Below, in pieces: positions 3-12,045 of a stretch of 64,000 nt of DNA. Under the pieces are notes generated by a model that was given only the letters and a program-made list of their open reading frames with translations, was not told where the DNA came from and did no database searches. The stretch comes from Akkermansia muciniphila. GTDB taxonomy: Bacteria > Verrucomicrobiota > Verrucomicrobiia > Limisphaerales > UBA9464. The translations under genes and the position numbers were made by a program. The stretch spans positions 11,717 to 75,716 of the forward strand of contig CAMCYJ010000007.1 of the NCBI GenBank assembly GCA_945883815.1, written 5' to 3'. Position 1 is the first letter of the stretch. Each line of letters opens with the position of its first letter.

Positions 3-596
3 ATGCTCTGGGTCGGCTGGTACGGCTTCAATGCGGGTTCCGCACTCGGCGCCGACGCCATCGCCTCCAACGCCTTCACCACCACCACCTTGGCCGCCGC
101 CACCGCCGGTTTCGTCTGGCCCATGATCGAGTGGATCACCCGCGGCAAGCCCAGCGTCCTCGGATTCTGCTCGGGCATCGTCGCTGGTCTGGTTGTTGTC
201 ACTCCGGCCTGCGGCTTCGTCACCCCGACCTCCGCGGTCATCATCGGCGTCCTGGCCGGCATCGTGCCCTACCTGGCCTGCTCCTACCTCAAGAAGTTGA
301 TCGGTTATGATGATGCTCTGGACACCTTCGGCGTGCACGGCGTCGGCGGCACCTTGGGAGCCATACTCACCGGCATCATGGCTGACGAAAAGGCCAACTC
401 GGTGGTTGGAGGCCTGAAGGAAGGTCTGCTCGGTGCCCAGCTCAAGGCGGTCCTCCTGACCATCGTTTGGAGCGTCGTGGCCACGGCCATCATCGCCTAC
501 ATTGTGAAGGCGGTCGTCGGACTCCGCCCGACCGAGGAAGTCGAAGTCAACGGGCTCGACCTCGCCGAACACGGCGAAGAGGGCTATCACGGCTGA
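3..596 (+). CDS. amtB: Ammonium transporter (Amt family), C-terminal part; gene starts before the window
   Basis: LWVGWYGFNAGS, SGIVAGLVVVTPACGFV, DDALDTFGVHGVGG and C-terminal GLDLAEHGEEGY are typical Amt motifs. Confidence 0.95.
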   Translation: MLWVGWYGFNAGSALGADAIASNAFTTTTLAAATAGFVWPMIEWITRGKPSVLGFCSGIVAGLVVVTPACGFVTPTSAVIIGVLAGIVPYLACSYLKKLIGYDDALDTFGVHGVGGTLGAILTGIMADEKANSVVGGLKEGLLGAQLKAVLLTIVWSVVATAIIAYIVKAVVGLRPTEEVEVNGLDLAEHGEEGYHG

Positions 597-623: not shown

Positions 624-654
624 AGGCCGCACCGGGAAATCGGTGCGGCCTTTT
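624..654 (+). terminator. Rho-independent terminator after amt
   Basis: AGGCCGCACCG-GGAAAT-CGGTGCGGCCT stem-loop followed by TTT. Confidence 0.8.
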
Positions 655-708: not shown

Positions 709-1557
709 TCAGGCGCCTCCTACTTCGATCACCAAGGCCGTGGTATTGTCCCGACCACTGGCCGCCACGGATGCTTCGACCAAGCGCTGCCCCAGTCTTT
801 CCTGCGTTCCAGCCACACCGGCTGACCCGAGCAGGTCCAGGAGATGCGCATCATACAAGCCGTCGACCAAACCGTCGGAGCAAATCAGGAATCGATCCCC
901 CGCAGAATAGGCTATAGAGCCAATCTGAGGATCCACGAACTGATTACCGCCACCCAATGCCTTCTGAAGCACATTCCTTCTCGGGTGGGTTCTGGCCTCG
1001 CGCTCGTTGATCTTCCCCTGCCGGTGCAGCCAGCCCACGTGGGTGTCGTCTTCAGTGAGTTGGCGGATGCCTCCGGCGGCAGGCAGGTGGTAGATCCGAC
1101 TGTCGCCGACATGGGCAAAGTGCAGAAGTCCCGGGGCAAACCAACACAAGCTCAGGGTCGTCTCCATGCCATGGCACTCCTCATAGCTTCGCCCCAGGTA
1201 GACCAAGGCCTTGTGAATTTCCCGAAAGAGCGCCTGCAAAAGCACCCCGGCTGAATCGGCCTCTGAATGCCCCGATGCCGTGCGGAACCCCTTCGGCAGA
1301 ATCTGGGGAACCTTTTCAACGGCGATCCGACTGGCAAATTCCCCCGCTTGCGCGCCCCCCATCCCATCGCTGACGGCAAAGACGAAATCGGCCGTCTGGA
1401 GCGTCGATTGTCCTTCCTTGCCCAAACGTTCCAGCTCTTGCCGGTTGAACCGCAACCCCACGAAGGAATCCTCGTTATTCGCACGAACCTTCCCTCGGTC
1501 GGAACAACCGGACCAATGCAGGCGGAAGTGGGCGATATCGCGGGCCATGGCATTCAT
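709..1557 (-). CDS. PP2C/PPM-family Ser/Thr protein phosphatase
   Basis: R..NEDS, VSDGMGG, HVGDSRIY, LICSDGL and GRDNTT metal-binding motifs. Confidence 0.93.
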   Translation of the reverse strand: MNAMARDIAHFRLHWSGCSDRGKVRANNEDSFVGLRFNRQELERLGKEGQSTLQTADFVFAVSDGMGGAQAGEFASRIAVEKVPQILPKGFRTASGHSEADSAGVLLQALFREIHKALVYLGRSYEECHGMETTLSLCWFAPGLLHFAHVGDSRIYHLPAAGGIRQLTEDDTHVGWLHRQGKINEREARTHPRRNVLQKALGGGNQFVDPQIGSIAYSAGDRFLICSDGLVDGLYDAHLLDLLGSAGVAGTQERLGQRLVEASVAASGRDNTTALVIEVGGA

Positions 1558-1587
1558 TGATGAGACCTCAGGGGATGGTGATGCCGA

Positions 1588-1962
1588 TCAGTTCAGCAAG
1601 GTCGCAAATTCGAAATCAATGATGCAAAATCGACCGTCGGATCTCCGGTAGGTGACATTGCGAATATCCTGGTCGTCGTGCCGGACGCCATAGGTCTCCA
1701 GTTCAGCAAAAAGGCTTCGAAGCCGCTCAGCATCCAAGTGTTCGACCCGTTGCCCACAATTGGTCGTGACGATCTGAGGAAGGGTCGAGGTTTCAGCGAT
1801 CAGTCGAGGCACGAAGGGGCACCCTCGCGCTTCCAGGAATTTCAGCACTTTCACCTCGGTTTCGAATCGCATGGCGGCATCGGGCCCATGATAGGTCTTG
1901 ATCACCCGCCCATCAAAGCTTAGGTGGACCGTGGACCGCAGTGTGTCTTTGACCTTCAGCAT
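1588..1962 (-). CDS. Minimal protein-kinase-like protein (124 aa; RIO/Bud32/Kdo-like core)
   Basis: VIK (beta3 Lys), RFETE (alphaC Glu), HDDQDIRN (HxDxxxxN catalytic loop) and IIDFE (DFG-like); 30 bp upstream of the PP2C gene on the same strand. Confidence 0.8.
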   Translation of the reverse strand: MLKVKDTLRSTVHLSFDGRVIKTYHGPDAAMRFETEVKVLKFLEARGCPFVPRLIAETSTLPQIVTTNCGQRVEHLDAERLRSLFAELETYGVRHDDQDIRNVTYRRSDGRFCIIDFEFATLLN

Positions 1963-2232: not shown

Positions 2233-2248
2233 TGGCACCTGCCCTGCT
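2233..2248 (+). promoter_or_regulatory. Putative sigma-54 (-24/-12) promoter of glnII
   Basis: TGGCAC-CTGCC-CTGCT matches TGGCAC-N5-TTGCW with correct GG/GC spacing, about 55 bp upstream of the glnII ATG. Confidence 0.65.
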
Positions 2249-2301: not shown

Positions 2302-3330
2302 ATGGCTAAATACAAATTGGAATACATCTGGCTCGATGGTTACCAGCCAGTCCCCAACCTCCGCGGCAAAACCCAGATCAAAGAGTTCGAAAGCTTTCCG
2401 AAGCTGGCAGAATTGCCCCTCTGGAACTTCGACGGCAGTTCCACCCGTCAGGCCGAGGGACGTAGCTCCGACTGTGTTCTCAAGCCGGTGGCCGTTTATC
2501 CCGACAGCACCCGCAAGAACGGGGCATTGGTGATGTGCGAAGTGATGATGCCCGATGGCGTGACCCCTCACCCCTCGAACACCCGCGCGACGATCCTCGA
2601 TGACCCCGGCGCCTGGTTCGGCTTCGAGCAAGAATACTTCCTGTACCGGGATGGACGCCCGTTGGGTTTCCCGGCCGGTGCCGACAATTTCCCGTTCCCC
2701 CAGGGCGAGTACTACACCGGCGTTGGCTACAAGGCCGTCGGTGACGTCGCACGCGAAATCGTCGAGGAGCACCTCGAACAGTGCCTCGATGCCGGTATCA
2801 ACCACGAGGGCATCAACGCCGAAGTGGCCAAGGGCCAGTGGGAGTTCCAGATCTTTGGCAAGGGCTCCAAGACCGCAGCTGATCAGGTCTGGATCGCCCG
2901 TTACATGCTCATGCGCCTGTGTGAGAAGTACGGCGTCGACGTGAACTGGCACTGCAAGCCCCTGGGCAAGGACGTGGATTGGAACGGTTCGGGCATGCAC
3001 TCGAACTTCTCCACCACCTACATGCGCGAGACGGGCGGCCAAGCTTACTTCGAGGCCCTCATGGCTGCGTTCGACAAGTACAAGAACGAGCACATCGCCG
3101 TTTACGGCCCCGACAACCACCTGCGCCTGACCGGTTTGCACGAGACCCAGTCCATCGATAAGTTCAGCTACGGCGTGGCCAACCGCGGCGCCTCGATCCG
3201 CGTCCCTCACAGCTTCGTCAACAACGGCTACAAGGGCTACGTCGAAGACCGTCGTCCGAACTCCCAGGGCGACCCGTACGCGATCGCCAGCCGCATCCTC
3301 CAGACGATCGCCACGGTCCCCACTCCGTGA
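2302..3330 (+). CDS. glnII: Glutamine synthetase type II (eukaryote-like GSII)
   Basis: MAKYKLEYIWLDG start (ATG 2302), WNFDGSST, GINAEVAKGQWEFQI, WNGSGMHSNFS, RLTGLHET, NRGASIRVP and EDRRP; 342 aa, the GSII size class. Confidence 0.93.
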   Translation: MAKYKLEYIWLDGYQPVPNLRGKTQIKEFESFPKLAELPLWNFDGSSTRQAEGRSSDCVLKPVAVYPDSTRKNGALVMCEVMMPDGVTPHPSNTRATILDDPGAWFGFEQEYFLYRDGRPLGFPAGADNFPFPQGEYYTGVGYKAVGDVAREIVEEHLEQCLDAGINHEGINAEVAKGQWEFQIFGKGSKTAADQVWIARYMLMRLCEKYGVDVNWHCKPLGKDVDWNGSGMHSNFSTTYMRETGGQAYFEALMAAFDKYKNEHIAVYGPDNHLRLTGLHETQSIDKFSYGVANRGASIRVPHSFVNNGYKGYVEDRRPNSQGDPYAIASRILQTIATVPTP

Positions 3331-3626: not shown

Positions 3627-4388
3627 ATGAATCGTCTCCGCAAACAACGTCTCGGCGCCTTCACGCTGATCGAGTTGCTCGTCGTTATCGCCATCATCGC
3701 GATTCTGGCCGGCATGCTCTTGCCTGCTCTGGCCAAGGCAAAGTCCCGCGCCAACCGCATCTCCTGCGTTAACAACCTCAAGAACATCGGTCTGGCCTTC
3801 CGCACCTTCGCGGTGGACTTCGGTGGTGCTTATCCCTGGCAGGTCAGTCCCGATCAGGGGGGTGTCGCGCTCGTCAACGCCTCCGTGGCCGGCACCGTAG
3901 CCACCGCCATCTCGAACAACGTCACCGCCGCCTTCGCGGCCGTGTCGAACGAGTTGAGCACCCCGAAGATCGTCTGGTGCCCGTCCGACGGCAGCCGCTT
4001 CACCGCCTCCAACACCTGGGTGGGCGTGCAGCGCTTGGCCTTCGCCAACAACCAAAAGGTTCCGAGCTACTTCCTCGGCACCACCGCCACTGAAGAGCAG
4101 CCCCAGAGCATCTTGGGCGGCGACCGCAATATCACCAACGGATTGACCGAGGCAGCACTGGCTGGTAAGCACGTCATCTTCGCGACCCCCGACGCCAATG
4201 GGGCTATCGCCGTCGCGACCCTGAACAAGATCGGCTACACCAGCTCGATCCACCAGAACGCCGGCAACATCCTCTTGGGCGACGGCTCCGTGCAGCAGGT
4301 TTCCTCGGGCCGCGTCCGCGATCAGATCCGCGACGCCGCCGCCAACTCCGGCGCGCAGAACTTCATCTTCCCGGCTGCTGGCAACTAA
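3627..4388 (+). CDS. Prepilin-type N-terminal cleavage/methylation domain protein with H-X9-DG motif
   Basis: GA|[24 protein letters not shown] class III signal; C-terminal [12 protein letters not shown]. Confidence 0.9.
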
Positions 4389-11700: not shown

Positions 11701-12045
11701 GGACTCGTCGCGGCTGAAGACAACGGCTTGGTGACGGTGGCCGCCGGCGATGAACTGACCCTGTCTTTCGACGCGGAAGCCCTGCCGAAGATTCCGTCCG
11801 GGCACCAGCGGCGCTTCTTCCTCTGGACCGTCGGCTGGAACAAAGACGCCGACTACCACGTTGCCGCCGGAGACCGCATCGAGCCCCTGCCCTGGCATGG
11901 CATGGACGACGCCCGTTACAACCGGGAAACCCGCCCGTCCTTCCCCAGCGATACGCTGCACCAGCGCTTCAACACCCGATGGGTGGGCCCGTTGAACTAC
12001 GAGCGAGTGGAGGCCCGGCGAGCAGAAAATAAAACAGGCCGATGA
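8713..12045 (+). CDS. Membrane-anchored TPR + FG-GAP/VCBS repeat + ASPIC/UnbV (CRTAC1-like) protein
   Basis: N-terminal TM helix, TPR helices, repeated GDLNNDRYDD/DYDNDGWLD/DFDQDGDMD Ca-binding loops, NRSNFSGIGLRIEL and GSCPYLYAWDG. Confidence 0.85.
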   Translation: MSLPKKSTAAPALVVGIFLFIVGIAATAWWFHRASNDDSEFAAHMNAGRGYYAAGDARRAIEAFQVALSMNPSNPDVHLNLANAFLLASQPSQALVHAREALQVEPGRGAAHYLAGCAHLRMGAFSNAVQSLTEAKQADRTLNTVSFQLGLAYAGWGRFPDAAEQFVEVIEFDKDHPSAHYQLSQAYLRQGAREQAAAELAEHQRVAAGKSQAADNPTLFEKCKYTEILAPFALEQPESDPVSVRFVEDTARALGPEAGRLKGPFGLFDLNRRGWNDVLLTDDQGSLRLLWNSNATFTARSEPLTSAIGTIQEIVVGDLNNDRYDDAILVGSEGSQLLKFATNGFITDGSALGGIRALKGTDATLGDIDITGKLALLAVTSEGRLRAFTNYGTAIFRERKPSPGDGFDVTGVTSVTIEDWNNDDLPDVLLTRRGERPWILSNQRRDGLSAGAQPTDWPVARCLAVGDFNNDLRADVALVTEAAVALYFGGLREPVRLPAKKNGIQKIRALDYDNDGWLDLITWGSDGLRVWRNRGRRGFHEMTESLGLKSLAGSTVRHAAFADFDQDGDMDCILETQGGGVRFFRNDGANANGLVKFRPIGNRSNFSGIGLRIELNAGNWRALRSIQRKPVEIGVGRHKDIETVIARWADTQPLFGVSAHPKQVVDLIEPKNPTGSCPYLYAWDGTRFRFLTDILSSAPVGLPSRPGHNIVADPREWVALGGTTEFVPKEGRYTVQLTEELREILYLDEAKLGWVDIEANAEAHSTSKLVPGPPFPRHELRILSGRIPLRAAQADNGADLTATLDREDGQRFSPRLRAPQLRGLADSTSVLLDFGPLADQTELTLALSGWLRFGGGMANIAGSHDPELPFPFPQLEAETAPNQWQSLQKVVVGVPAGRTKTILVPLGGHLPPGTRRLRLTYAFELHWDRIALFQNNRPADVGTLRPTSTDLHWHGYGEFAATGPSDPLTPLHENVRQRPPWRVTPSGWATRYGSVGGLVAAEDNGLVTVAAGDELTLSFDAEALPKIPSGHQRRFFLWTVGWNKDADYHVAAGDRIEPLPWHGMDDARYNRETRPSFPSDTLHQRFNTRWVGPLNYERVEARRAENKTGR

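Follow-up and report, generated by a model that had tools for sequence, protein, structure and literature searches.

In this study, we analysed a 64,000-nucleotide stretch of the Akkermansia muciniphila assembly GCA_945883815.1 (contig CAMCYJ010000007.1, forward-strand positions 11,717 to 75,716; hereafter, the window), in which the gene for a small kinase-fold protein, mk (mini-kinase), is followed by a gene for a PP2C-type protein phosphatase and is divergent from glnII, the gene for a type II glutamine synthetase (GSII). The mk–PP2C pair probably acts as a previously undescribed switch that controls nitrogen assimilation in Verrucomicrobia by phosphorylation. Specifically, we tentatively propose that mk and PP2C form a two-subunit or fused kinase/phosphatase that may reversibly phosphorylate the GSII encoded next door, a reading that we regard as possible and somewhat short of probable. 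Full-text literature searches retrieved no paper on this mk family or on a link between GSII, PP2C and a kinase. The core of the locus is laid out as follows:

1588 to 1962, minus strand: mk (mini-kinase), 124 amino acids (aa); from the open reading frame (ORF), Pfam, the AlphaFold2 (AF2) model, Foldseek and homologue alignments
1558 to 1587, minus strand: mk–PP2C spacer, 30 nt, from the mk stop codon TGA to the PP2C ATG; read from the sequence
709 to 1557, minus strand: PP2C/PPM Ser/Thr protein phosphatase, 282 aa; from Pfam/NCBIfam and PDB sequence matches
1963 to 2301, no strand: intergenic region between the divergent mk and glnII, 339 nt; read from the sequence
2302 to 3330, plus strand: glnII, type II glutamine synthetase, 342 aa, of the mk-associated GSII subclade; from Pfam, PDB matches, the tree and co-occurrence

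Conservation of the mini-kinase

A preliminary description of this locus had claimed that mk keeps the kinase catalytic residues in the correct order, and all of them were read here: K22 in RVIK, E36 in FETEVKVL, H95, D97 and N102 in RHDDQDIRN (HxDxxxxN), and D116-F117-E118. It was also right that the ORF stops soon after DFE, as the C-terminal residue, N124, lies six residues past E118 and nothing else follows. Its statement that mk has no Gly-rich loop requires a correction: the β1–β2 loop (K5-D-T7-L-R9) contains no glycine and no GxGxxG motif, but the β1–β2 hairpin and β3 are present in the structural model, and the glycines are what is missing.

A word-indexed homologue search yielded 7,916 clusters at 90% identity; the 120 clusters listed were 124–195 aa long, nearly all 124–165 aa, and the source-named ones among those listed were from Verrucomicrobiota/Verrucomicrobiae. 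An exhaustive search of representatives gave 270 clusters, several of which were proteins of ~400 aa. K5, T7, R9, K22, R32, E36, C48, H95, D97, R101, N102, D116, F117 and E118 were invariant in 70 mk sequences, and even among 30 standalone members, down to 39% identity, K22, E36, H95, D97, D116 and F117 were invariant and N102 and E118 were ≥90% conserved. The possibility that mk is a frameshifted fragment of a longer kinase, which the preliminary description had raised, is excluded, since the homologues are equally short or fused to PP2C and the longer relatives run on into a PP2C domain, never into a kinase C-lobe. Nor is the mk ORF a chance frame, as judged from its Pfam APH score, homologue clusters, invariant catalytic residues, AF2 confidence and Foldseek kinase matches. 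Together, these results firmly establish that mk is conserved, has a minimal kinase-type fold and retains the catalytic signature intact.

The window mk is the shortest version of the family. Divergent standalone homologues of 145–175 aa (e.g. P0141, P0143, P0149 and P0175) carry a C-terminal extension of 20–45 residues after DFE, charged and probably helical, which is positioned where the fused forms described below have their linker; the window mk is without it. Two cysteines, C48 (GC48PFVP) and C69 (NC69G), are invariant or ≥90% conserved across the family, and C113 is invariant in close relatives; the three could form a redox or metal site. Public labels for the family are "hypothetical", "Bud32" and "serine/threonine protein phosphatase", and the current public annotation is thus wrong or empty.

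Predicted structure and family placement

The mk model generated by AF2 from the homologue alignment had a predicted local distance difference test score (pLDDT) of 96.5 and a predicted template modelling score (pTM) of 0.89. It comprised β1 (2–6), β2 (10–14), β3 (19–24), αC (29–45), β4, β5 and an αE-like helix (78–89), with short strands (β7–8) flanking the catalytic loop HDDQDIRN and DFE. The N-lobe was complete. Everything after subdomain VII was absent, including an activation segment with APE and subdomains VIII–XI (αF–αI), in agreement with the truncation already noted from the ORF. Foldseek matched the model to many kinases in the PDB with a probability of 1.0, the best matches being the 171-aa tRNA kinase Ark1 (TMq 0.73), Rio2, PRPK/Bud32, TkArkI, lanthipeptide-synthetase kinase domains and CK2. 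The mk family profile matched CK2α weakly, at 2e-5, across the N-lobe and catalytic loop. A single-sequence PDB search with mk returned only a sucrose-synthase match, which was judged spurious.

APH (PF01636) was the sole Pfam family above its cut-off, at 26.7 bits against a gathering cut-off of 23.2. The alignment spanned mk residues 69–122 and profile positions 143–199 of 239, that is, the catalytic loop and DFE, and the C-terminal substrate-binding subdomain was absent; APH also matched 28 of 30 mk members. Pfam scans of the window protein and of the same 30 members gave no Pkinase match. Profile searches and structure prediction, proposed earlier as a check, thus bore out the kinase fold.

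Membership in three known groups was considered and ruled out. mk is not a Hanks-type kinase, since it has no Gly-rich loop, no APE or αF–αI and no Pkinase match; it is not an ArkI (COG2112), having HDD, no P-loop glycine and nothing after DFE; and it is not a Bud32/RIO protein, as it scored 11.4 bits against the NCBIfam Bud32 cut-off of 199 and its neighbours are PP2C and glnII. The Lys–Glu pair on the N-lobe and αC, HxDxxxxN and DFE, and the Foldseek and CK2α profile matches show instead that mk is a genuine, unclassified member of the protein-kinase-like superfamily.

The phosphatase partner and mk–PP2C fusions

The window PP2C contains RxxNED, DGMGG, GDSR, CSDG and DNTT, so that all metal-binding motifs are present, and has a family-specific β-hairpin insertion between the NED and DGMGG motifs. 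Its Pfam PP2C_2 score was 60.3 bits (cut-off 24). The best NCBIfam match was Stp1/IreP (NF033484), which at 173 bits was below the equivalog cut-off of 230. PstP, tPphA, MspP and Stp1 were the closest proteins by PDB sequence and structure, and the PP2C domain of a fused homologue superposed on PstP, tPphA and STP-type structures with TMt values of 0.89–0.90. By these motifs and matches, the partner is predicted to be a canonical phosphoprotein phosphatase of the PstP/tPphA-like type. Phosphatases of the PstP/tPphA/Stp1 type normally pair with Ser/Thr kinases.

As stated in the preliminary description, mk is 30 bp upstream of a complete PP2C gene on the same strand, and the pair lies between amt and glnII. 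Within the spacer, about 11 nt ahead of the PP2C ATG, is the ribosome-binding site GAGG, which indicates that the spacer is an operon junction. We sampled the gene context of close relatives in 80 genome loci, with denominators varying by feature, and found PP2C directly downstream of mk in 75 of 77. In addition, a targeted search identified at least 562 in-frame mk–PP2C fusions, in which the mk domain is followed by a linker of roughly 20–25 residues and a complete PP2C domain. Source-named fusions came from Verrucomicrobiales, Akkermansiaceae and Planctomycetota (Pirellulaceae, Aureliella), and the metal-binding motifs were invariant in 88 fused homologues. The model of a fused homologue had a pLDDT of 89.8 and a pTM of 0.73, with a low-confidence linker. 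The pairwise-distance correlation between mk and PP2C was 0.82. The association of mk with the phosphatase, including fusion, is thus firmly established, and the adjacency and the fusions support the conclusion that mk is functionally coupled to PP2C. Such fusions also fit the earlier suggestion that the truncated kinase may need a partner.

Some loci depart from this pattern. Two have no PP2C next to mk: the downstream gene encodes an amine-oxidase-like flavoprotein in L129 (G222) and a DeoC-type aldolase in L108 (G081). At L002:6433-7240, PP2C similarity after mk is found only in two overlapping frames at 37–39% identity and the called gene is 98 aa, such that this PP2C may be decaying beside an intact mk and glnII. 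The loci L087 and L088, from the same planctomycete-type assembly (GCA_036704275.1), hold two fused mk–PP2C paralogues; the L088 paralogue is directly downstream of glnII, and the L087 paralogue is without glnII and has an alanine dehydrogenase gene two genes away.

Linkage of the pair to GSII

The window GSII carries Gln-synt_N and Gln-synt_C domains (Pfam). Its best PDB match was the GSII 4bax (7e-89), and next came glutamine synthetases of yeast, plant and human origin; among proteins of known structure, its closest relatives are GSII of S. coelicolor and the glutamine synthetases of eukaryotes. Phylum surveys covered 301 Verrucomicrobiota and 301 Planctomycetota genomes. Among the former, mk was found in 56 and GSII in 62; GSII was present in 56 of the 56 mk-positive genomes versus 6 of the 245 mk-negative ones (Fisher p = 1.6e-54 by genome and 7e-31 by genus, statistics that are inflated by shared ancestry). 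The six genomes with GSII only belong to another class, and their GSIIs are 57–62% identical to that of the window. In several genera and families that mix carriers with non-carriers, mk and GSII were always present or absent together. Only 3 of the Planctomycetota genomes had mk and 25 had GSII-like genes; the three carriers hold the GSIIs most like that of the window (70–74% identity, same GSII subclade).

Gene coordinates showed that glnII is the immediate divergent neighbour of mk in 50 of the 56 Verrucomicrobiota genomes. Among close relatives, glnII was divergent within 1 kb of mk in 54 of 65 loci, and the divergent intergenic region had a median length of 345 nt in 70 related loci, similar to the 339 nt of the window. 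In 20 phylum-level loci from 10 families, glnII adjoined mk in divergent orientation in every case; mk, PP2C and glnII were the sole recurrent neighbours, no other conserved neighbour being found in these loci. A second arrangement was seen in L085 (Aureliella, one of the three planctomycete carriers) and in L088, where glnII lies ~100 nt upstream of a fused mk–PP2C gene on the same strand. In a maximum-likelihood tree, all 85 mk-associated GSIIs fell into one clade (98/97 support) apart from the GSIIs of mk-less genomes, and the pairwise-distance correlation between mk and GSII was 0.86. The mk–PP2C–glnII arrangement was also present in the cultured Roseimicrobium sp. ORNL1 and Ruficoccus amylovorans and in an Opitutaceae genome. 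Together, co-occurrence, adjacency, shared evolutionary history and the same-strand arrangement in two planctomycete-type loci support a tight linkage of the pair to GSII, and they firmly establish that the pair is inherited together with, and encoded next to, one GSII subclade in two phyla and in two gene arrangements.

Two further observations concern individual loci. At L107:4831-6198 (G243), where mk–PP2C is not beside glnII, the pair is divergent from the gene for an NtrC-type response regulator with a receiver domain, a sigma-54 activator domain and HTH_8, another nitrogen-regulation neighbour. The trio was also found in metagenome-assembled genome records (L008, L027, L039, L040, L059, L070, L077, L080 and L084) whose contigs are labelled Akkermansia muciniphila, Bifidobacterium, Klebsiella, Methylomirabilota, Kapaibacterium, Acidoferrum or Limnocylindria; the trio is typically verrucomicrobial, and these records are probably mis-binned or mis-named.

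Nitrogen-regulation setting and expression

The remaining features around the pair are the following:

2233 to 2248, plus strand: sigma-54-type promoter TGGCAC-N5-CTGCT; from a motif scan and related intergenic regions
3 to 596, plus strand: 3′ end of amt, ammonium transporter; from Pfam (the window opens inside the gene)
624 to 651, plus strand: intrinsic-terminator-like hairpin followed by a T-run, after amt and between amt and the PP2C gene

The glnII ATG is preceded, at a distance of 69 nt, by the sigma-54-type promoter (TGGCACCTGCCCTGCT, 2233–2248, plus strand). This promoter was the single match to the motif in the 64-kb window, where 0.11 would be expected by chance, and the same motif was found 68–118 nt upstream of glnII in 44 of 70 related intergenic regions. 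Its position indicates that the true glnII start is the ATG at 2302, not the GTG at 2221 given by the ORF finder, and the motif implies putative NtrC/sigma-54 control of GSII in these Verrucomicrobia.

The whole amt gene (G000:C7:10840-12312) runs convergent to the PP2C gene; in L089 (G000:C7, 8620-12312), immediately upstream of the window, it is preceded by the genes for a DASS-family transporter and GlnK (PII), all three sharing one orientation. The genome also encodes type I glutamine synthetase (GSI) and GlnD (L090:2796-5609), and no GlnE match above cut-off was found in it (completeness estimated at 91%). The preliminary description had placed the pair in place of or alongside GlnD/GlnE control; the presence of GlnD and PII suggests that it operates in parallel with GlnD. 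Coverage by lake metatranscriptome contigs was sparse but extended over PP2C, mk and the junction of the two, one contig spanning 1455–1632; these contigs may include DNA carry-over and are weak evidence of co-transcription. Further along the window, the protein encoded at positions 3627–4388 (plus strand) combines a DUF1559 domain with an N-terminal methylation motif of the prepilin type. Prepilin-type/DUF1559 proteins form large families in Planctomycetes and Verrucomicrobia.

Proposed mechanism and alternative explanations

We propose that mk and PP2C constitute one functional unit, two subunits in the window and a single polypeptide in other lineages, that would catalyse opposing Ser/Thr phosphorylation and dephosphorylation with GSII as its dedicated client. 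ATP-Mg would be bound between the N-lobe (the K22–E36 pair, with K5/T7/R9 replacing the glycine loop) and the catalytic loop and DFE. Since mk is without the activation segment and substrate-binding helices, it would rely on the tethered PP2C or the GSII decamer itself for substrate docking, and PP2C would remove the mark. With glnII transcribed from the putative sigma-54 promoter, GSII activity would be set post-translationally, making the unit a GSII counterpart of GlnE on GSI or AceK on isocitrate dehydrogenase. In this scheme, the use of ATP by mk, its activity as a protein kinase, its direct action on GSII and the sign of the effect on activity are inferred. A bolder version, in which mk (subdomains I–VII only, about 120 aa) would be the smallest protein kinase known to be competent for catalysis, a PP2C or GSII surface would replace the C-lobe, and the whole would be a bifunctional GSII on/off switch, seems doubtful to us.

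Several observations weigh against phosphorylation of GSII by mk. The glycine-rich loop and any element C-terminal to DFE are absent, and so is every protein-kinase substrate-binding element; the smallest structural match has 171 aa, and we know of no characterised kinase as small as mk. In the divergent members P0228 and P0230, N102 and/or the Asp or Glu of DFE is gone, which shows that, as pseudokinases do, a protein can keep the kinase-like fold after catalysis is lost. In terms of genetics, mk and glnII are apart in 6 of 56 genomes, L129 and L108 are without an adjacent PP2C, and genome G447 has a GSII inside the mk-associated clade and no mk, one apparent mk loss; the shared ancestry that inflates the co-occurrence statistics counts here too. 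Gene context, moreover, establishes a functional link, not a substrate relationship. Among 41 diagnostic positions of the GSII clade, no clade-specific Ser/Thr could be singled out as a phospho-acceptor: S304 is Ala in some mk-associated members and T238 is common to other GSIIs. The C-terminal TVPT tail of GSII is absent from fused-type lineages.

The main rival, which we consider unlikely, is that mk is not a writer at all but a nucleotide-binding/ATPase regulatory subunit that switches PP2C by ATP/ADP or another ligand, much as Bud32 regulates Kae1 in KEOPS or as RsbT, a small kinase, activates the PP2C RsbU; PP2C would then strip phosphates put on GSII or another nitrogen-metabolism protein by an ordinary Hanks kinase. 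The lack of substrate-binding elements just noted speaks for it, as do the occurrence of PRPK/Bud32 and a Kae1–Bud32 fusion among the best structural matches, the fusion or adjacency of mk to its partner enzyme, as for Bud32 and Kae1, and the members that are without catalytic residues and still keep the fold and the fusion. A Hanks kinase gene lies two genes downstream in L085; however, it is not a conserved neighbour in the phylum-level loci. Moreover, Asp97, Asn102 and the DFE Asp are conserved beyond the needs of nucleotide binding, which argues against a purely ligand-binding role, although an ATPase would need them too.

A different target, PII (GlnK) or Amt in place of GSII, is improbable. 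mk would phosphorylate Ser49 of PII, a modification known from cyanobacteria, and PP2C would act like PphA. The preliminary description had pointed to ammonium uptake or GSII and had proposed a neighbourhood survey for amt, glnII and PII; the link to GSII was supported by the results described above, and the link to ammonium uptake was not. The pair is indeed convergent with glnK–amt in the window, amt is adjacent and convergent in 45 of 59 close-relative loci, and tPphA, a homologue of the cyanobacterial PII phosphatase, is among the closest PP2C structures. The PII T-loop, YRGSEY, has both Ser49 and Tyr51, and in its Ser49 this PII resembles cyanobacterial PII, which is phosphorylated; to our knowledge, no kinase has been assigned to the latter. 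However, amt and PII were next to mk in none of the 20 phylum-level loci and in no fused or planctomycete locus, and the mk–amt pairwise-distance correlation was just 0.12–0.13. Adjacency to amt/glnK is thus specific to the window's own lineage. In addition, no genome without this GSII has mk, although PII and Amt would be expected in nearly all genomes, and the window's genome encodes GlnD, the classical PII modifier.

More improbable still is a non-protein substrate for mk, either a small molecule, in the manner of APH/choline kinase (ChoK; e.g. a glutamine synthetase inhibitor or glutamine analogue), or RNA, in the manner of ArkI. Such a role would be in line with APH being the only Pfam family above cut-off and with the tRNA kinase Ark1 as the top structural match; the combination of DFE and HxDxxxxN without the Lys of eukaryotic-type protein kinases is typical of APH, ChoK, Rio and ArkI (in part PMC9095486). 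Against it, mk is obligately paired with a canonical protein Ser/Thr phosphatase, it is without the helical substrate-binding subdomains of APH/ChoK and the HGQ triplet and subdomains IX and XI of ArkI, and no tRNA- or antibiotic-related genes are conserved nearby in the phylum-level loci.

GSI is classically regulated by adenylylation, and kinase-fold AMPylases exist (SelO). An AMPylation/de-AMPylation pair, in which mk would transfer AMP like SelO and PP2C would remove it like SidD, a PP2C-fold de-AMPylase (PMC3656104), would be a GSII analogue of the GlnE control not found in this genome, but it is very hard to credit: the nearest relatives of PP2C are genuine phosphoprotein phosphatases (PstP and tPphA, TMt 0.9), mk keeps the canonical kinase catalytic Asp, and Foldseek, profile and Pfam searches detected no similarity to SelO.

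GSI is controlled by GlnE, and cyanobacteria have inactivating factors; the post-translational control of bacterial GSII is essentially uncharted. If mk–PP2C does switch GSII, it would be a previously unknown post-translational control of this enzyme, equivalent to GlnE, and a new regulatory layer in the way Verrucomicrobia, abundant lake and soil bacteria, assimilate nitrogen. A 124-aa domain with all the kinase catalytic residues and without a C-lobe also tests the minimum fold for ATP binding or phosphotransfer and could serve as a minimal engineering scaffold. The hypothesis lends itself to direct testing, since the trio is arranged in the same way in the cultured Roseimicrobium sp. ORNL1, R. 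gellanilyticum and Ruficoccus amylovorans.

Comparison with known systems

Among small kinase folds, the archaeal tRNA U47 2′-kinase ArkI/Ark1 (COG2112; PDB 8yv4, 8yv5 and 7vnx) is the best structural match to mk (TMq 0.73, E = 1.5e-6, 23% identity). Both are very small (171 aa for ArkI), have DFE in place of DFG and have a dedicated eraser. ArkI, however, has a P-loop, its catalytic triplet is HGQ, and its subdomains IX and XI carry a YKR tRNA-binding motif (PMC9095486); its eraser is KptA, not PP2C, and its context is tRNA maturation, versus glnII for mk. Bud32/PRPK and RIO are likewise small atypical kinase folds without an activation loop and good structural matches, and Bud32 is an ATPase subunit bound to its partner Kae1, to which it is fused in some archaea. 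In contrast to mk, they have 220–290 aa and keep C-lobe helices and a P-loop, and mk has no Kae1 or ribosome context.

GlnE and AceK resemble the proposed unit as bifunctional writer/erasers for one central metabolic enzyme, encoded beside it (aceBAK for AceK). This is an analogy only, as neither is homologous to mk–PP2C: GlnE uses nucleotidyl-transferase domains and AMP, and AceK has one active site for both reactions, whereas mk–PP2C would use two separate domains.

The Stk1/Stp1, PrkC/PrpC and PknB/PstP pairs share with mk–PP2C the adjacency, in one operon, of a kinase-fold gene and a gene for a PstP/Stp1-type PP2C, from which the two enzymes presumably act on the same substrates. mk has 124 aa versus roughly 270 or more in Stk1, PrkC and PknB, and is without their Gly loop, activation segment, C-lobe helices, Pkinase match and sensor or PASTA domains. 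The mk–PP2C order is also kinase first, often fused, and dedicated to one metabolic gene, glnII. We read mk–PP2C as a cognate kinase/PP2C pair in which the kinase is drastically shortened and a single metabolic enzyme is the presumed dedicated client.

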